A stretch of 32,000 nucleotides of DNA. It comes from an uncultured Planctomycetia bacterium (GTDB lineage: Bacteria; Omnitrophota; Gorgyraeia; Duberdicusellales; 4484-171). Shown in pieces: positions 1 through 12,719 of the stretch (position 1 is its first letter; each line of letters begins with the position of its first letter). Both the position numbers and the translations under genes were made by a program. The DNA lies in assembly GCA_964536865.1 (NCBI GenBank), contig CAZHYN010000002.1:1-32000 (forward strand), given 5' to 3'. The notes beneath the pieces were generated by a model, which saw nothing but the letters and a program-made list of their open reading frames with translations, had not been told where the DNA came from and did no database searches.

Positions 1-197
1 GCAATTAAATTTGTGCAAAACTCATCTAATTCTATTTCCAGTTCATTCATCTTAGGCTCGTATTTTTTGACTACCTTTTCTAAAATTTCTTTTCTTTTTT
101 CAATAAGCCCTTCAATTGACTTTTTAACCATATCTTCAGCTAGACCCGCTTCTTCAATTAATTTTTTCTTTAATTCATTCAATTTTTCTTCTAACAT
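1..197 (-). CDS. phoU: PhoU phosphate-signalling regulator, N-terminal part (gene runs off the left edge)
   Basis: Absent from the ORF track because it is truncated. The reverse complement has ATG at 197 preceded by GGGAGGA (202-208). It translates MLEEKLNELKKKLIEEAGLAEDMVKKSIEGLIEKRKEILEKVVKKYEPKMNELEIELDEFCTNLI, a PhoU-like helical N-terminus. It starts 13 nt after the pstB stop, the canonical pstSCAB-phoU position. Confidence 0.75.
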   Translation of the reverse strand, partial: MLEEKLNELKKKLIEEAGLAEDMVKKSIEGLIEKRKEILEKVVKKYEPKMNELEIELDEFCTNLI

Positions 198-210
198 ATT
201 TTCCTCCCAT

Positions 211-972
211 TTATCCAAATTTGCCTGTCAAATAGTGCTCGGTCATCTTATTTTGAGGGGTGGTAAATATCTTCTGTGTAGGGCCAAATTCAACTAAATT
301 TCCCAAGTATAAAAAAGCAGTGTAATCAGAGATTCTTGCTGCCTGTTGCATATTGTGAGTAACAATTACTATTGTATAATTCTTCTTTAAATCCTCAATC
401 AATTCCTCAATCTTTGCTGTAGCAACCGGATCCAAAGCAGAACATGGTTCATCAAATAATACAACTTCTGGCTCAAGAGCTATACAGCGAGCAATACATA
501 ATCTCTGTTGTTGGCCTCCAGATAAATCCAGAGCAAATTTATCAAGTTTGTCTTTAACCTCATTCCATAAAGCAGCCTGCTTTAACGCTTTCTCAACTTT
601 AAAATAGAGCTCTTCTTTATTCTTAAACATCCTATGAAGTTTTAACCCATAAGCAATATTCTCAAATATAGATTTAGGGAAAGGGTTGGGCATCTGAAAT
701 ACCATTCCTATTCTTTTTCTCAAAAACGTCTCATCAATATCATAGATATTCTGGCCATCCAATAAAATTGCACCCTTTACTTTTGCTTCAGGTATTATAT
801 CCAGCATTCTATTTATTGATTTTATAAGTGTGGATTTACCACAGCCTGAAGGACCAATAATTGCTGTAACTTTGTTTTTCTCAACATCAAGATTTACATT
901 TTTTATTACCTGCATATCTTGATACCAGATATTTAAATTGTGAATAGAAATTTTAATTTTTTTACTGTTCAT
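211..972 (-). CDS. pstB: Phosphate ABC transporter ATP-binding protein PstB
   Basis: Walker [13 protein letters not shown] signature LSGGQQQR, Walker B VVLFDEP and the PstB-typical [20 protein letters not shown]. Overlaps the pstA stop by 4 nt. Confidence 0.95.
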
Positions 973-10177: not shown

Positions 10178-10219
10178 CTATCCTTTTATGGTAAATATAT
10201 TTTAACTATCCAATTATGG
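10178..10219. promoter_or_regulatory. Two direct 14-nt repeats (CTATCCnnTTATGG) in the XRE/recombinase divergent control region; candidate operators
   Basis: ctatccttttatgg at 10178-10191 and ctatccaattatgg at 10206-10219, with 12/14 identity and 28-bp spacing, between the two divergent start codons. Confidence 0.3.
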
Positions 10220-10242
10220 ATTTTAACAAAGAGGAGGCTAAA

Positions 10243-11799
10243 ATGCAAGAAAAATTAAGATGTGCAATTTATACAAGGGTAAGTACGGATAATCAAGCAG
10301 AAGTTGAGTTTAACTCTTGTGAGGCTCAAGAAGAAAAGATAAGAGCATTTATTAAAAGTCAAGAAAATATGATAATTTATAAAGTTTACTCTGATGCTGG
10401 GTCCACAGGAGTAAATCTTAATAGACCTGCTTTACAGAAATTACTTGAGGATATAAAACAAGGCAACATTAACATTGTTTTGGTTTACAAAATTGACAGA
10501 CTTACCCGTTCTCCTAAAGATTTCTACTACTTAATGGAGATTTTTGAGAAATACAAAGTTGATTTTATCTCAATCACAGAAAGATTTGATACCTCTACTC
10601 CAGCAGGAAGACTTTTAAGAAACATAATGCTTACCTTTGCTCAGTTTGAAAGAGAGTTAGCAAGTGAGAGAACAAAAGATAAGATGCTTCAGAGAGCAGA
10701 AAAAGGGTTATGGAATGGCGGTATTTCTCCATTTGGATACAAGACATTAAATAAGAAACTTGTTCCTCATGAGCAGGAAGCTAAAGTTGTTAAGTTAATA
10801 TTTGAAACTTATGTTGATACTGGGTCTATAGCAGAGGTTTATAACACCCTGAAAGAGAAAAATATTTTAAATAGGCATGGCAAAGTTTTTACCAAATCAA
10901 GTATTAAAAATATCCTCTCTAATCCTGTCTATATCGGGAAGTTAAAATATGCTGGGAAAATTTATAATGGACTACATCAGCCTATAATTAGTGAACTTCT
11001 CTTCAACGAAGCTCAGGAACTGCACAAAAAGAAAATCAGGGAAATGAAACTCTTTAGAAATTATCTTTTTGCAGGTTTAATCACTTGTGAGGAATGCAGA
11101 TCAAAAATGACGCCAACCTATACAAACAAAAAAGCAAAAAGAGGAAGAAAGAGATATTTTTATTATAGATGCACCTCTACCCTAAAAAGAGACTGGCAGG
11201 TATGCACTACAAAACAGGTAAACGCTGATAGGCTGGAAAGATTTGTTTTAGAAAATTTAGAAAGAGTATCAAAAGATGAGCCTTATATTGAAAATCTTTG
11301 TTTTAAACTTAACCACAATCCAGATGAGTTAGTTCGAAATTCTCTTATAAAAAATAAGGTATCGGGCGACCGGGCTGGATTCGAACTAAGCAGGGAGCAA
11401 TTGAAAATTGAGCCTAAAGGTTTAATTTTCCAACTTAAAACCTTCCTTAACACTCTCTCCTCCCTCTCCCGAGCCGAGCAGGTTCTTTTAATAAAAGAAA
11501 AAATTGACTCAATAAAATATTCCAAAAAAAGAATCAGGGTAAACTTCAAATATTCCTTAAAAATCAACAACTTAAACCCCTCTCAACAAGGTTCTGGTCA
11601 GGTGGGGGTGGGTGGTGGGAGTTTAGAGAAAGAAAATCAAAATATCCCTTCCTTTTATTCTTCCGATTTAGTTCGAAAAGAAATAATGGCTCCCCGGGCA
11701 GGGCTCGAACCTGCGACCCGCTGGTTACACCTAATCCCTGAGTTTCCCCAGAGGGTGGACTATCTCTTCACCATATTCCGACGTAATGTCGGAACTTAG
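10243..11799 (+). CDS. Large serine recombinase (integrase type); the formal ORF has no stop before the tRNA and ends inside the intron on the opposite strand
   Basis: Start ATG 10243 with GAGGAGG at 10231-10237. Resolvase catalytic domain (RCAIYTRVSTDNQ, IDRLTRS), recombinase domain, zinc ribbon (CEEC...YYRC...C) and the terminal beta-hairpin block IKYSKKRIRVNFKYS ending near 11565. The last ~80 codons cover a G-rich tract, the antisense tRNA 3' exon (MAPRAGLEPATRW) and 72 nt of intron. Confidence 0.85.
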   Translation: MQEKLRCAIYTRVSTDNQAEVEFNSCEAQEEKIRAFIKSQENMIIYKVYSDAGSTGVNLNRPALQKLLEDIKQGNINIVLVYKIDRLTRSPKDFYYLMEIFEKYKVDFISITERFDTSTPAGRLLRNIMLTFAQFERELASERTKDKMLQRAEKGLWNGGISPFGYKTLNKKLVPHEQEAKVVKLIFETYVDTGSIAEVYNTLKEKNILNRHGKVFTKSSIKNILSNPVYIGKLKYAGKIYNGLHQPIISELLFNEAQELHKKKIREMKLFRNYLFAGLITCEECRSKMTPTYTNKKAKRGRKRYFYYRCTSTLKRDWQVCTTKQVNADRLERFVLENLERVSKDEPYIENLCFKLNHNPDELVRNSLIKNKVSGDRAGFELSREQLKIEPKGLIFQLKTFLNTLSSLSRAEQVLLIKEKIDSIKYSKKRIRVNFKYSLKINNLNPSQQGSGQVGVGGGSLEKENQNIPSFYSSDLVRKEIMAPRAGLEPATRWLHLIPEFPQRVDYLFTIFRRNVGT

Positions 11800-12022
11800 G
11801 TGCCGGGCGCTTCCCCCGATATAACATCGGGGTACTCCCTTTTCGGGATAGTCTCTGCACCTTCCCCGACGTTCCGTCGGGGCTTGGCTCAGGGTTACCA
11901 TCCCTGAACTACAAGAAGTTCAGAGTACAGGCTTCCCTGAATTCACCCGGTTTTTCATCCCGATGTTTCCATCGGGAGCTGCTCTTCACAGCCAGCTGCT
12001 CTACCTGCTGAGCTACCGGGGA
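11687..12022 (-). tRNA. tRNA-Asn(GUU), interrupted in the anticodon loop by a group I intron
   Basis: Exon 1 (12022-11988) is TCCCCGG TA GCTC AGCAGGTA GAGC A GCTGG CTGT. Exon 2 (11727-11687) is TAA CCAGC GGGTC GCAGG TTCGAGC CCTGC CCGGGGA G CCA. Joined, they give a perfect cloverleaf with loop CUGUUAA (anticodon GUU), U1-A72, G73 and encoded CCA, as in bacterial tRNA-Asn. Confidence 0.85.
11728..11987 (-). ncRNA. Group I self-splicing intron, subgroup IC3-like, 260 nt, no internal ORF
   Basis: P1 pairs exon GCUGU with intron GCAGC (nt 6-10), giving a U.G wobble at the 5' splice site. The terminal nucleotide is G (omega-G). P2 is an 8-bp stem with a GAAA tetraloop. Blocks GAGCCAAGC, GAAGGTGCAGAGACTA, GGCACCTAAG and TATGGTGAAGAGATAGTCCA match, from memory, the Azoarcus tRNA-Ile and cyanobacterial tRNA-Leu introns. 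P7 is GACTAT/ATAGTC and P3 is CCGGGTG/CGCCCGG. Confidence 0.85.
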
Positions 12023-12259
12023 AGTTATTTTATCTAAGAACTTTCTTCCCTGACCTGATTTAAGAAAACGTTCTCTTTGTCTAGCTTCTTTCACACAAAC
12101 AAACTCTTCATAATACACTAAATCAAATGGACCATTCTGCCTAGTCCACTGATTGGAACCTGAATTATGCTCTTTTAGACGCACTTCAACTCTTTTCGAA
12201 GTACAACCTATATACCTCTTACCATTACGTCTACTTTTTAATACATAAACTATAGCCAT
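11909..12259 (-). CDS. Short GIY-YIG (URI-domain, YhbQ/UPF0213-like) nuclease; only codons 1-79 are domain, codons 80-116 are read-through into the tRNA 5' exon and intron
   Basis: IVYVLKSRRNGKRYIGCTSKRVEVRLKEHNSG...WTRQNGPFDLVYYEEF...EARQRERFLKSGQGRKFL carries the GIY/YIG, R, H-N and E motifs. Codon 80 (TCC, 12022-12020) is tRNA nucleotides 1-3. The stop at 11909 lies inside the intron. Confidence 0.8.
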   Translation of the reverse strand: MAIVYVLKSRRNGKRYIGCTSKRVEVRLKEHNSGSNQWTRQNGPFDLVYYEEFVCVKEARQRERFLKSGQGRKFLDKITSPVAQQVEQLAVKSSSRWKHRDEKPGEFREACTLNFL

Positions 12260-12279
12260 CTTTCTATCTTATTACAGCC

Positions 12280-12309
12280 CTCGCCTGAGGCGAGTTCGCC
12301 TTCGGCGAA
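12280..12309. repeat. Two tandem 15-nt perfect hairpin modules (6-bp stem, 3-nt loop)
   Basis: Plus strand ctcgcc-tga-ggcgag (12280-12294) and ttcgcc-ttc-ggcgaa (12295-12309), inserted between tRNA positions 29 and 30 of the relic exon. Confidence 0.8.
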
Positions 12310-12351
12310 AGCTGCTCCCTGTCTACCAGCAGGTAGGTACCTGCTTAAGCT

Positions 12352-12381
12352 TCCGCCTGAGGCGGATCAGCCTCTGGCTGA
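12352..12381. repeat. Two tandem 15-nt perfect hairpin modules (6-bp stem, 3-nt loop)
   Basis: Plus strand tccgcc-tga-ggcgga (12352-12366) and tcagcc-tct-ggctga (12367-12381), inserted between tRNA positions 8 and 9 of the relic exon. Same YYNGCC-NNN-GGCNRR architecture as 12280-12309. Confidence 0.8.
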
Positions 12382-12435
12382 ACCGGGGAATAAGTTAATT
12401 TACAAAGAGCTCATCTCTTCCAATTTTGCATACTC

Positions 12436-12464
12436 ATTATACAACCATTGTTCTAATTTATCAA
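12436..12464 (-). promoter_or_regulatory. Candidate sigma-70 promoter for the relic exon / GIY-YIG / tRNA-Asn unit
   Basis: Minus strand TTGATA (12464-12459), 17-nt spacer, TATAAT (12441-12436), about 45 nt upstream of the relic exon. Such matches arise by chance in AT-rich DNA. Confidence 0.35.
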
Positions 12465-12719
12465 CTATATTGTTACTTATCAGAAAGTAGTTATCTTTAA
12501 CTTTATGAATAGCAAACGAAGCTTATTTTACCTGGACATTCCCAAAAAATAACCCTGAATTTCTCTAACGCGCTATAATCCAGTGAGTTAAGAAAATTAA
12601 AATCTGATTAGCTGCAAAGGTGAAATTTTAGGTTAAACCCGGATTTTGCATTAGCAAAATCCGCCCCAAGGGCAGCCCTTTATTCTTCATAAGAAGAAAT
12701 TCATTCGTAGAAATAAAGA

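Follow-up and report, generated by a model that had tools for sequence, protein, structure and literature searches.

Mobile-ORF endonucleases duplicate part of their own target gene (PMC3630166). In fungal mitochondria such mORF hybrid genes have been found in atp6 of Allomyces macrogynus and in atp6, atp9, cox2 and nad3 of Glomus; a conserved gene has there received a free-standing endonuclease ORF (of the GIY-YIG type in Glomus atp9) along with a replacement for part of itself, the displaced native part is kept as a nearby duplicate, and ORF and gene can be in phase without a stop between them (PMC3630166). The tRNA-Asn locus described here follows the same plan. In the window (the whole 32-kb stretch of DNA that was analysed) and in two related loci, L001 and L002, an interrupted copy of tRNA nt 1-35 lies upstream of a GIY-YIG ORF and the live tRNA lies downstream, a duplicated target segment of the mORF type. 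However, what the fungal elements bring is a protein gene's 3' end, with the ORF coming after it, whereas the bacterial cassette has a tRNA gene as its presumed target, duplicates the 5' half, and has its ORF preceding and overlapping the live copy. Also unlike the fungal elements, the non-functional copy of the cassette has conserved 30-nt double hairpins, and the hosts are bacteria.

The phages of the T-even group offer two further comparisons. In T4, the free-standing GIY-YIG gene for SegB lies between tRNA genes and its product targets the tRNA intergenic region; Seg genes spread with co-conversion of flanking markers (PMC2988022). RNA hairpins and the processing of transcripts limit how far homing endonuclease genes are expressed (PMC2988022; see also PMC13096335). 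Unlike the phage-borne SegB, the cassette nuclease has no close relatives among IMG/VR viral contigs, where only distant N-terminal GIY-YIG matches were found. Seg proteins are ~200+ aa long and have a DNA-binding domain, and SegB is not known to overlap a tRNA or to be accompanied by a partial tRNA duplication. The second comparison is the T4 mobE/nrdB intron, an example of collaborative or trans homing, which the window resembles in two ways: its free-standing nuclease gene has an ORF-less group I intron next to it, and the cassette junction of its lineage is the intron insertion site. The likeness ends with the relatives, in which nuclease and intron do not co-occur and the intron family has an HNH-like ORF of its own (L085).

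In sequence and structure the nuclease is closest to the UPF0213 (YhbQ-like)/Slx1 cluster, which includes stand-alone minimal domains of the same kind (PMC1564403). A prokaryotic Slx1-like GIY-YIG domain is fused to a TrmH-type tRNA (Gm18) methyltransferase, and an RNA role was suggested for it by Dunin-Horkawicz et al. (PMC1564403). The cassette protein differs from Slx1, which needs Slx4 and a RING/zinc domain, and no report of UPF0213 proteins abutting a tRNA was found. In mitochondrial tRNA punctuation, which serves organelles as a genome-wide mode of expression, stop codons are completed by polyadenylation. The cassette resembles it in that the reading frame finishes at or within the 5' end of a tRNA on the same transcript, whereby RNase P would set the mRNA 3' end, and differs in that a single selfish bacterial gene family is concerned and cleavage would remove the stop. 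Finally, REP/RAYT, IS200/IS605 and the double-hairpin elements of chytrid mitochondria share with the cassette GC-rich, polar, covarying hairpins that are inserted precisely, without target duplication, and are tied to a nuclease gene. The cassette differs from them in having no HUH/Y1 transposase and in that its hairpins are not dispersed in the genome (2 of 105 are away from a GIY-YIG ORF).

The window gene belongs to a widespread family of probably selfish cassettes, each a minimal GIY-YIG nuclease with 30-base double hairpins, that occupy the 5' half of tRNA genes in bacteria; the family has apparently not been described before. Neither small GIY-YIG genes abutting tRNAs nor the double hairpin were found in the full-text literature searched; a paper on CPR rRNA insertions reports GIY-YIG ORFs in non-intron inserts and does not mention tRNA. 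The parts of the locus are listed in Table 1.

Table 1. Parts of the tRNA-Asn locus and its neighbour, in window coordinates.
Feature	Coordinates	Strand	Remarks
Sigma-70-type promoter, TTGATA-17 nt-TATAAT	12436..12464	(-)	11/12 consensus matches; ~45 nt upstream of partial tRNA copy
Interrupted partial copy of tRNA-Asn nt 1-35 (pseudo exon 1)	12274..12389	(-)	read from sequence
Pseudo exon 1 segment, tRNA nt 1-8	12389-12382	(-)	
Double-hairpin element 1, 30 nt, TCAGCC-AGA-GGCTGA TCCGCC-TCA-GGCGGA	12352..12381	(-)	after T8 of tRNA copy
Pseudo exon 1 segment, nt 9-21-like	12351-12338	(-)	
Palindromic extra insert, 20 nt, CCTACCTGCTGGTAGACAGG	12318..12337	(-)	D-loop part of tRNA copy; alignment gap vs L001, L097
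Pseudo exon 1 segment, tRNA nt 22-29	12317-12310	(-)	
Double-hairpin element 2, TTCGCC-GAA-GGCGAA CTCGCC-TCA-GGCGAG	12280..12309	(-)	precise 30-nt insert between T29/G30
Pseudo exon 1 segment, nt 30-35 (GGCTGT)	12279-12274	(-)	
Spacer from tRNA copy to ATG, 14 nt, AATAAGATAGAAAG	12260..12273	(-)	no good Shine-Dalgarno
GIY-YIG core, codons 1-79	12023..12259	(-)	minimal Slx1/UPF0213-type nuclease domain
Read-through tail, codons 80-116 + TAG	11909..12022	(-)	tRNA exon 1 + intron P1-P2-P3 sequence
tRNA-Asn(GUU) exon 1, nt 1-35, live copy	11988..12022	(-)	sequence, intron-less orthologues
ORF-less group I intron, 260 nt, between anticodon positions 35/36	11728..11987	(-)	RF00028
tRNA-Asn exon 2 incl. 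encoded CCA	11687..11727	(-)	T-loop position 60 = C, cassette-linked variant
Large serine recombinase ORF	10216..11799	(+)	Pfam Resolvase, Recombinase, Zn_ribbon_recom

The ORF has 116 codons on the minus strand (12259-11909), of which the first 79 make up the GIY-YIG core. The domain assignment made from the letters alone was borne out by a PF01541 match over residues 2-68 (E 2.1e-14, 54 bits against a cut-off of 22.6). The window protein has every residue that is invariant in the family (Y5, Y16, G18, R27, H31, N42 and E63); Y5, Y16, G18, R27, H31 and E63 are unchanged in 42 diverse relatives, and the family alignment shows the catalytic residues to be constant across phyla. The subfamily has in addition an invariant C-terminal helix of its own, FLKSGQGRK(F)LD, whose LKSGQGR motif corresponds to residues 66-72 of the window protein. 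The core structure was predicted with a pLDDT of 96. Foldseek placed UPF0213 (1zg2) first, followed by Slx1 (6seh, 7cq2, 4xlg), I-TevI and UvrC; the Slx1 nuclease domain matched with 27-29% identity and an rmsd of 2-2.9 A. The best profile matches among solved structures were BH0048 (1zg2) and EF2693 (1ywl), at E ~1e-7. The NCBIfam scan gave only a 'group I intron endonuclease' match below threshold, and nothing in the cassette matched the PADLOC profiles for anti-phage defence. A DNA-binding module as in I-TevI or Seg proteins is absent, the protein being a catalytic domain alone (79-81 aa), as was noted from the start. It is very likely that the window ORF encodes a GIY-YIG endonuclease and is a mobile gene of the free-standing kind; both the nuclease activity of its product and the target are inferred.

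The tRNA gene is easily overlooked. ARAGORN at default settings found no tRNA in the window; with introns allowed it found the 260-nt interruption and mis-typed the tRNA as Thr(tgt). We typed it as Asn GTT from the intron-less orthologues L001 and L002. That the interruption is a group I intron, as claimed from the sequence, agrees with a score of 83.4 bits against Rfam RF00028 (gathering score 50). P1 was set manually because Rfam puts P1/P2 wrongly, in the ORF 3' end; read by eye, P1 pairs GGCUGU with GCAGCU, with a U.G at the 5' splice site, and the intron ends ...GGUG|. The serine recombinase ORF converges on the tRNA and crosses exon 2 in antisense orientation before entering the intron. 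This neighbour, which lies outside the cassette, is also present in L002; in L085 a recombinase-like ORF, its domain called by reading the sequence and not by a Pfam scan, likewise runs antisense into the tRNA 3' end.

The sequence-only reading described ORF and tRNA as fused head-on. They are in fact co-directional, with the 3' end of the ORF meeting the 5' end of the tRNA. It was right about the register: codon 80 (TCC, 12022-12020) is nt 1-3 of the same-strand tRNA-Asn(GUU), and the frame continues for 37 codons, across exon 1, P1 and P2, to a TAG at 11911-11909, inside the intron. The abutment is not due to chance, since in 61 of the 85 family copies no more than 40 nt separate the end of the domain from the start of a tRNA on the same strand. 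In the standard layout, tRNA nt 2-10 provide the last two sense codons and the stop (U8-A9-G10). The stop codon is inside the tRNA in 43 of the 61 tRNA-abutting copies (about 70%), and is the tRNA's own U8-A9-G10 (TAG) in 32. The standard junction reads ...ATT CCC CGG TAG in L006, L016 and L053, against ...ACT TCC CCG GTA in the window, whose lineage has one added base at the junction that leaves the tRNA TAG (nt 8-10) out of frame. The extra base shifts the frame, so the ORF reads on: for 27 codons past the junction in the intron-less siblings, where the stop is just beyond the tRNA (P0002, 106 aa), and for 37 in the window, because the tRNA-Asn there also has the group I intron. On this comparison the 37-codon tail is the product of a 1-nt junction slip. 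No homology of the 37-aa tail to anything was found; it is tRNA and intron sequence. The idea that the stop lies beyond the RNase P site holds for those 43 copies of the family, but the stop-less design proposed for the gene finds no support, the loss of the stop in the window going back to the slip. Eleven family members read through, in various ways.

Upstream of the ORF, hairpin inserts separate the segments of pseudo exon 1, which shares the direct repeats ACCGGGGAA, AGCTGCTC and TACCTGCT with the tRNA and whose layout can be aligned with L001 and L002. When the 30 nt of element 2 are removed, the 6+6 flanking nt are contiguous with the live tRNA. The 20-nt palindromic insert is missing in L001 and L097 and has a perfect-palindrome form (CCTGCCTGCCGGCAGGCAGG) in L002 and a near-identical one in L008. 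The pseudo exon 1 region has an RNA fold z-score of -5.2. The promoter in front of it is the only strong one on the minus strand within 11500-12700, and in the empty-site relative L086 an analogous TTGACG..TATAAT is found immediately 5' of a plain tRNA. The window promoter is presumably the original tRNA-Asn promoter, now serving leader, ORF and tRNA. The weak Shine-Dalgarno signal remarked on earlier was found again in the window spacer, and an SD-like 4-mer precedes 9 of 81 family ORFs.

The double hairpins are tightly bound to the nuclease gene. Among 105 double-hairpin pairs in 390 kb, 103 are within 400 nt of a GIY-YIG ORF and 103 have the same polarity as the ORF. With two hairpins as the fold, pairing amounts to 99.1% and there are 119 double-sided changes, a level reached by 0 of 500 shuffles. 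A single long 30-nt hairpin was dropped as the structure, since its pairing is worse than in shuffled controls. The GCC/GGC cores, A9 and T22 are invariant. Exact 30-nt insertions account for 38 of 67 double hairpins; they are located at tRNA nt 8, 12/13, 17, 28/29 or 36, with a T directly before the insertion in 37 of the 38 and no target duplication. Rfam gave no family for the double hairpin, whether gathering thresholds or permissive E-values were applied. The motif was not found elsewhere in the 32-kb window, and a genome-wide REP-like repeat is ruled out by this single occurrence and by the 103 of 105 pairs beside a GIY-YIG ORF. Whether the non-functional tRNA copy is upstream (type A) or downstream (type B), the hairpin sits in it. 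Across the family the hairpin ends a median of 20 nt upstream of the start codon. It may serve to damp translation, as a recognition structure of the nuclease, or both.

The family comprises 85 intact copies at 80+ loci in Patescibacteria, Omnitrophota, Dehalococcoidia and other phyla, the usual protein length being 80-81 aa. The abutting tRNAs are of at least 11 amino-acid types: Asn, Val, Ala, Ile, Lys, Met, Thr, Arg, Pro, Phe and Asp. Relatives are numerous, with 2,231 clusters (50% identity) matching the profile at E<=1e-10 and 315 relatives in a scan of one genome per species. The gene is missing from most genomes, and its occurrence on the various tRNA types is patchy, both inside single genomes and from one genome to another. 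At 47 of the 61 loci, tRNA nt 1-8 are repeated exactly within 200 nt upstream, while the same 8-mers occur only 7 times in ~1383 control windows. The two tRNA copies are identical at most loci, and the few differences (L014, L071) point both ways as to which copy is native and which imported. Protein lineage agrees with tRNA type in 56 of 74 cases, a figure confounded with host taxonomy, so that it does not distinguish a long vertical residence from spread to specific sites; the concordance was dropped as proof of site-specific homing.

Mobility is indicated by several kinds of evidence. The empty and filled sites L086 and L001 have flanks ~95% identical at an otherwise conserved site, and L001 has ~400 nt more, which are the interrupted copy and the ORF. 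A 367-nt cassette, 94-99.7% identical, is found behind unrelated flanks in the window and L002 on the one hand and L001 on the other. Tandem cassette copies are present in L002, L073, L036, L027 and L022, and L004 and L006 have decayed 3' remnants of the ORF on the upstream side. All five alleles with the cassette have C at T-loop nt 60 and all five without it have T, which is consistent with co-conversion but concerns a single SNP in alleles that are not independent. Contig breaks are frequent at the cassette. The empty site, tandem arrays, unrelated flanks and linked T-loop SNP together indicate, at the level of sequence, a mobile cassette, and the arrays suggest re-invasion.

The reading we favour, with a probability of roughly 0.6, is that of a mobile ORF of the homing type, which supplies the tRNA with a replacement 5' segment and uses the promoter of the tRNA for its transcription. 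The cassette consists of a partial tRNA 5' copy interrupted by precise double hairpins of 30 nt that are rich in GC, a short spacer that lacks a Shine-Dalgarno, a GIY-YIG ORF of the minimal (79-81 aa) Slx1/UPF0213 type, and an intact functional tRNA copy into which the ORF runs directly. The tRNA would survive the cassette because the cassette supplies the replacement 5' segment. The tRNA's own promoter would produce the whole cassette as one precursor transcript, from which RNase P cleavage would part the nuclease message from the tRNA. As the stop U8-A9-G10 is beyond the RNase P cut, nuclease synthesis may be gated: cleavage would give a stop-less message and a low yield of nuclease. Spread and re-invasion would occur by nuclease-triggered recombinational copying into tRNA genes, similar to homing and probably by way of double-strand-break repair. 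The intron may shield the live tRNA from re-cutting, since in the window lineage the left end of the cassette, after GGCTGT (nt 35), falls where the intron is inserted; such protection would be a by-product.

Some observations do not sit easily with homing. The 79-aa protein has no DNA-binding extension with which to select a tRNA gene, and the presumed target, the intact tRNA, stays next to the ORF after insertion; classical homing elements destroy their own target site. The left homology available for recombination in L001 amounts to ~8 nt and a few leader bases, and a simple version of homing does not require strongly conserved hairpin sequence and polarity. More tentatively, a new class of element can be envisaged, specific for tRNA genes, in which a minimal Slx1-like GIY-YIG enzyme works with a 30-nt double hairpin recognised by its structure and placed precisely after U/T at structural junctions of the tRNA gene, the synthesis of the enzyme being gated by pre-tRNA processing through the stop U8-A9-G10; we consider this possible, at rather less than even odds.

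The presence of the intron led the sequence-only reading to collaborative homing: the GIY-YIG protein would cut intron-less tRNA-Asn where the intron is inserted and mobilise the protective, ORF-less intron, and the missing stop would make nuclease expression depend inversely on the maturation of the tRNA. T-even phages provide documented cases of collaborative and trans homing (PMC2988022), the intron is 35 nt downstream of the nuclease ORF in the window, the left junction in this lineage is at the intron site as noted above, and 9 of ~31 tRNA-Asn genes adjoining GIY-YIG genes have a group I intron. The relatives argue otherwise. The same nuclease in L004 (100%) and near-identical ones in L001, L002 and L090 (97-99%) abut intron-less tRNA-Asn, so the protein is not a dedicated partner of the intron; the check on co-occurrence likewise came out negative, with GIY-YIG but no intron in L001, L002, L004, L088 and L090, and the reverse in L085, where the same intron core is at the same site with its own 108-aa HNH-like ORF and no cassette. 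The family resides mostly on intron-less tRNAs, including 10 other types, the junction in other tRNA-Asn lineages is in the D-arm and not in the anticodon loop, and the stop loss, a 1-nt slip of the TAG(8-10) layout, is common to the intron-less siblings. On the 2x2 table of close relatives and the family survey, an association of intron and cassette was rejected. Collaborative homing is thus improbable, and the intron, on these comparisons, is a mobile element separate from the cassette. Even less likely is a host function, in which the protein would be a non-mobile factor, co-transcribed with the tRNA, for tRNA/RNA processing, quality control or maintenance of tRNA-gene DNA. Likely co-transcription from the tRNA promoter, the very strong conservation of the protein and the suggested RNA role of the Slx1-like fusion to a TrmH-type enzyme (PMC1564403) would suit such a factor, but the interrupted tRNA copy, the tandem arrays, the empty and filled alleles, the shared cassette behind unrelated flanks and the patchy tRNA types are left unexplained, and most genomes do without the gene.

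Two other explanations are better placed than these, though each remains unlikely. The nuclease might be directed by the hairpin as its true cis-acting site, recognising the 30-nt element as an extruded or single-stranded structure and inserting or copying it precisely after a T in tRNA-gene sequence. Such structure-guided transposition or conversion would work in the manner of REP/RAYT or IS200/IS605, with a GIY-YIG protein as the enzyme, and the duplicated tRNA part would follow from which insertions are survivable. Precise insertion after T at five discrete tRNA positions without target duplication, covariation for two hairpins and against one long one, the invariant bases, the strict linkage to the ORF by position and polarity, and the hairpin's place in the non-functional copy in types A and B all accord with this, as does the fact that the nearest characterised structural relative, Slx1, is a structure-selective nuclease. 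However, the ORF is outside the 30-nt element, so hairpin mobility alone cannot move the gene. Only 2 of 105 hairpins are away from a cassette, unlike REP-type repeats, HUH/Y1-type chemistry is missing, co-conversion could equally pass on precise 30-nt blocks, and an RNA-level role as a leader structure ~20 nt before the start codon would also fit the polarity and covariation. The remaining explanation concerns the window copy, which could be a crippled relic whose stop loss gives a 37-aa nonsense tail or stop-less messages and no useful nuclease. The slip does remove the standard stop of the family, the tail has no homology beyond tRNA and intron, a junk tail of this kind might impair the window copy, and decayed copies are common in arrays. 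Yet the core is intact with all invariant residues, and read-through is seen in 11 family members. The 97-100% identity across several samples and loci, including the recently duplicated array L002, argues for recent activity of the frame-shifted lineage.

Under the favoured reading of a homing-type mobile ORF, a large minimal GIY-YIG subfamily annotated as 'function unknown' gains a concrete and testable role. In the streamlined genomes of Patescibacteria, Omnitrophota and Dehalococcoidia, tRNA genes would host a compact selfish cassette on their 5' side. Integrases at the 3' side of tRNA genes and introns in the anticodon loop are well known; the tRNA-Asn gene of the window has a 5' cassette, an anticodon-loop intron and a 3'-side recombinase, all at one locus. 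The cassette also explains why certain annotation artefacts recur: tRNA finders mis-type the introns, contigs break at cassette loci, and ORFs are extended, either into tRNAs ('SSVGRA...') or at the N terminus ('PPEADQPLAG'). It offers a natural system in which to ask whether a nuclease of ~80 aa without a DNA-binding domain can find its target through nucleic-acid structure, what conserved double hairpins do beside a nuclease gene, and whether a stop codon placed beyond an RNase P site throttles a toxic gene.

In the window, the minimal GIY-YIG ORF and the intron-bearing tRNA-Asn(GUU) gene lie head-to-tail on the same strand, not head-on as worded in the sequence-only reading, whose coordinates and description of the junction are otherwise correct: tRNA nt 1-3 form codon 80 of the ORF, and the frame runs into the intron. 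It crosses exon 1, P1 (GGCUGU/GCAGCU, with U.G at the splice site) and P2, and ends at TAG (11911-11909). Residues 2-68 match the catalytic domain (PF01541, E 2e-14). The tRNA gene is missed by default ARAGORN, and its Asn identity was taken from intron-less orthologues. One strong promoter, and no other, lies upstream of the whole unit. The interrupted tRNA copy that follows it ends at GGCTGT (nt 35), 14 nt before the ATG, and the leader has a much more stable fold than shuffled versions of it (z = -5.2). The interrupted copy with its hairpins, the spacer and the ORF are called the cassette here, and L001 to L099 denote related loci from genomes or metagenomes.

Features of the window and of related loci
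Feature	Locus	Position	Strand	Remarks
Near-consensus promoter TTGATA-17-TATAAT	window	12464-12436	minus	
GCTCTTT box	window	~12410-12416		
Copy of tRNA-Asn nt 1-35, in pieces	window	12389-12274	minus	between promoter and ATG
30-nt double hairpin	window	12381-12352		inserted after T8 of tRNA copy
20-nt palindrome	window	12337-12318		in D-loop part of tRNA copy
Second 30-nt double hairpin	window	12309-12280		inserted after T29 of tRNA copy
GIY-YIG ORF, 116 codons	window	12259-11909	minus	ORF call
tRNA-Asn(GUU) exon 1	window	12022-11988	minus	directly 3' of GIY-YIG ORF
Group I intron of tRNA-Asn, 260 nt	window	11987-11728	minus	RF00028, 83.4 bits
tRNA-Asn exon 2 including CCA	window	11727-11687	minus	
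Large serine recombinase (Resolvase + Recombinase + Zn ribbon)	window	10216-11799	plus	converges on tRNA-Asn
Same recombinase neighbour	L002	876-2519	minus	
20-nt palindrome	L002	~195-214		
Group I intron	L085	166-757		window's intron core, same tRNA-Asn site; no GIY-YIG cassette
Recombinase-like ORF	L085	751-1489	minus	same position
ORF-less unit	L021	2741-2863		between ORF and live tRNA
Double hairpin	L051	4930-4959		>1.5 kb from any GIY-YIG ORF
Double hairpin	L058	4270-4299		>1.5 kb from any GIY-YIG ORF

Genes of this protein family usually abut a tRNA. Scanning one genome per species yielded 315 relatives, from which 80 loci were fetched, mostly from Patescibacteria, Omnitrophota, Dehalococcoidia, Elusimicrobiota and WOR-3; the layout counts cover 85 intact GIY-YIG copies. 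In 61/85, a same-strand tRNA begins no more than 40 nt from the end of the domain, and most of the remaining 24 are at contig ends or split from the tRNA by another cassette remnant. About half of the abutting tRNAs are Asn, the others being Val, Ala, Ile, Lys, Met, Thr, Arg, Pro, Phe and Asp. The stop is the tRNA's own U8-A9-G10 (TAG) in 32 of the 61, giving a 10-nt overlap, while 11 ORFs read further into the tRNA and 18 stop just ahead of it. Homologues are typically 80-81 aa, and the longer database entries are artefacts of the same layout, with C-terminal tails of translated tRNA ('...SSVGRA...', '...SPVAQQVEQLAVNQRVAGSSPARG') and N-terminal extensions of translated GC hairpins ('PPEADQPLAG'). 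Comparison of the junctions (...ATT CCC CGG TAG in canonical tRNA-Asn relatives, ...ACT TCC CCG GTA G.. in the window and ...ATT TCC CCG GTA in L001) indicates that the stop-less frame, read earlier as a special design, is real in the window but is a one-base slip of the family's TAG layout.

The nuclease had also been proposed to be the homing partner of the ORF-less intron. This pairing fails, because the same nuclease adjoins intron-less tRNA-Asn genes (100% identical in L004, 97-99% in L001, L002 and L090) and L085 carries the intron without the cassette. Among TCCCCGG-type tRNA-Asn genes, collected by scanning metagenomes for tRNA-Asn nt 8-35, cassette and intron occur together in the window, L003 and L097 (probably one population), the cassette alone in L001, L002, L004, L088 and L090, the intron alone in L085, and neither in L084, L086, L089, L091, L092, L096 and L099; GIY-YIG/tRNA adjacency is thus not linked to the intron. 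L085, which has a flank in common with the empty site L086, is decisive for the intron's independence of the cassette. Its intron has the same catalytic core as the window's, with compensatory changes in peripheral helices, and its P1-P2 holds a 108-aa ORF with CxxC...HH...CxxCH motifs (Pfam HNH match weak, E 0.002), so that the window intron is probably an ORF-less derivative of an endonuclease-bearing family. A group I intron is present in 9 of ~31 tRNA-Asn genes in a count covering cassette-adjacent genes alone. Directly after a GIY-YIG ORF, tRNA-Asn(GUU) with a group I intron at anticodon position 35/36 was seen in L005, L013, L015, L039, L059, L063, L066 and L097, and such introns are common in Omnitrophota and Patescibacteria MAGs; intron-permitting ARAGORN assigns these genes wrongly to Thr, Asp or Pro. 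The classical bacterial intron-bearing tRNAs are Leu, fMet, Arg and Ile, and tRNA-Asn is not known to be among them. The recombinase ORF of the window runs antisense through the tRNA-Asn 3' exon, which points to an integrative element that uses this tRNA gene's 3' end; three kinds of mobile element would then meet at the one gene. The genes to its left (pst transporter, phoR/phoB-like, porin) look chromosomal.

Comparison of loci shows the cassette being gained, lost and arrayed. The upstream flanks of L086 and L001 are ~95% identical (recR side, promoter included), L086 having a plain tRNA-Asn and L001 the interrupted copy and ORF inserted at the same site. The 367-nt window cassette shares 94-99.7% identity with those of L001, L002, L004 and L097, and its upstream flank has no similarity to that of L001. 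Cassettes are in tandem in L002, L073, L036, L027 and L022, and in L004 and L006 the interrupted copy is preceded by decayed 3' ends of the ORF. Both patterns are expected if the intact tRNA remains available for re-invasion, with older units being displaced in the upstream direction. Contig ends fall at the cassette in several cases. T-loop position 60 is C in 5/5 window-cassette alleles, whose 3' flanks differ, and T in five alleles without that cassette, a pattern consistent with co-conversion; L088 has the 3' flank of L090 but a different GIY-YIG paralogue. In a minority (~7-9/85) the live tRNA is upstream and a hairpin-interrupted full-length copy is downstream of the ORF. Recombination of a unit of interrupted copy, spacer and ORF with the resident tRNA, to one or the other side of the hairpin, would yield both arrangements. 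The reverse order (intact tRNA, short spacer, ORF, interrupted copy) was noted in L017, L032, L057, L068, L078, L081 and L009, mostly near position 2500; the copy in L017 is nearly full-length and takes in a second 33-nt spacer and ATG. Some Dehalococcoidia loci instead have the hairpin in the T-arm. The L021 unit (partial tRNA-Pro 5' copy, double hairpin and spacer), missing from the 91%-identical L034, looks like a relic of ORF loss, so that hairpins standing alone may be scars of earlier cassettes.

The double hairpin is a defined element, with consensus TCCGCC-RRA-GGCGGA-YCMGCC-TYY-GGCKGR and 105 pairs at 15-nt spacing across the loci. Although the search imposed GCC-N3-GGC cores only, the three outer stem positions left free covary (99.1% paired, 119 double-sided changes; 0/500 shuffles as high). 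Folding as a single long hairpin is rejected, only 82% being paired, worse than shuffled controls (494/500 at least equal), which argues that two separate stem-loops are selected and a perfect 30-nt palindrome is avoided. All but two of the pairs (103/105) have a GIY-YIG ORF no more than 400 nt away, and 103/105 are oriented with the ORF, purine-rich loop first. A hairpin motif is upstream of the ORF in 72/85 copies. The double-hairpin motif is confined to the cassette leader within the 32-kb window, and matches no Rfam family. Relative to the live tRNA, 38/67 upstream pairs are exact 30-nt insertions, 37/38 of them after a T (nt 8, 12/13, 17, 28/29 or 36). An exact copy of live tRNA nt 1-8 lies within 200 nt upstream at 47/61 loci, the same 8-mers occurring only 7 times in ~1383 control windows. 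The start codon follows the last hairpin by a median 20 nt, and an SD-like 4-mer precedes only 9/81 ORFs. The 20-nt palindrome is a second kind of GC-rich insert (CCTGCCTGCCGGCAGGCAGG and variants), also found upstream of the ORF in L008; it occurs on Asn and Arg cassettes and is absent from L001 and L097. A GCTCTTT box and then an A-rich stretch lie 15-25 nt upstream of tRNA-Asn in different phyla, at filled and empty sites (window, L086, L099, L015, L051, L060, L063), and the box loosely resembles the GIY-YIG ORF 3' end (GTTCTTAGATAAAAT).

These observations are best read, with a probability of about 0.6, as a selfish cassette spreading by nuclease-triggered copying into tRNA genes. The nuclease would break the tRNA gene and repair would copy the cassette in, the tRNA surviving because a replacement 5' segment is brought along, a mirror-image counterpart of the 'hybrid genes' that mobile ORFs form in mitochondria (PMC3630166). 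The whole unit would be one pre-tRNA transcript, cut by RNase P at tRNA nt 1. In ~70% of the family the stop would lie 3' of this cut, so that processed messages would lack a stop and finished protein would come from unprocessed precursor only. Combined with a start codon that lacks an SD and follows a stable double hairpin, this may hold a potentially toxic nuclease to low levels; repression of this kind, in several layers, has been described for the homing endonuclease genes of phages (PMC2988022). Against such homing, the enzyme consists of the catalytic domain alone, its presumed target is still intact after insertion, and left homology at L001 is only ~8 nt. Protein lineage agrees with tRNA type in 56/74 cases versus 29% expected, a figure confounded with host taxonomy, and sequence evidence for an imported versus a native tRNA copy is ambiguous.

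Simple homing also needs neither the conserved sequence nor the polarity of the hairpins, which may inactivate and mark the redundant tRNA copy and structure the leader, or be what the enzyme recognises. The window protein keeps all residues invariant in 42 diverse relatives (Y5, Y16, G18, R27, H31, N42, E63 and the LKSGQGR motif). Its closest solved relatives by sequence are UPF0213 BH0048 and EF2693, and the folds nearest to its confident AlphaFold model (pLDDT 96) are BH0048 in first place, the Slx1 nuclease domain in second (rmsd 2-2.9 A, 27-29% identity), and after these I-TevI and UvrC. Prokaryotic Slx1-like proteins are the minimal stand-alone GIY-YIG form, one being fused to a tRNA Gm18 methyltransferase (Dunin-Horkawicz et al., PMC1564403). 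A hairpin-directed variant of the reading, built on recognition of the double hairpin by this Slx1-like enzyme, seems unlikely.

The family comprises 2,231 clusters (50% identity, E<=1e-10), with no match in PADLOC and no close relatives on viral contigs. In CPR rRNA genes, every GIY-YIG protein is reported to come from a non-intron insert (PMC11270868). Full-text literature searches returned no account of small GIY-YIG genes abutting tRNAs, of a stop codon from tRNA nt 8-10, or of the double hairpin. It is doubtful that hairpin and nuclease form an element whose mechanism is of a new type. The separate parts, namely a free-standing GIY-YIG gene, duplication of part of the target and regulatory hairpins, are already known in kind; what is new here is their combination and their habitat.
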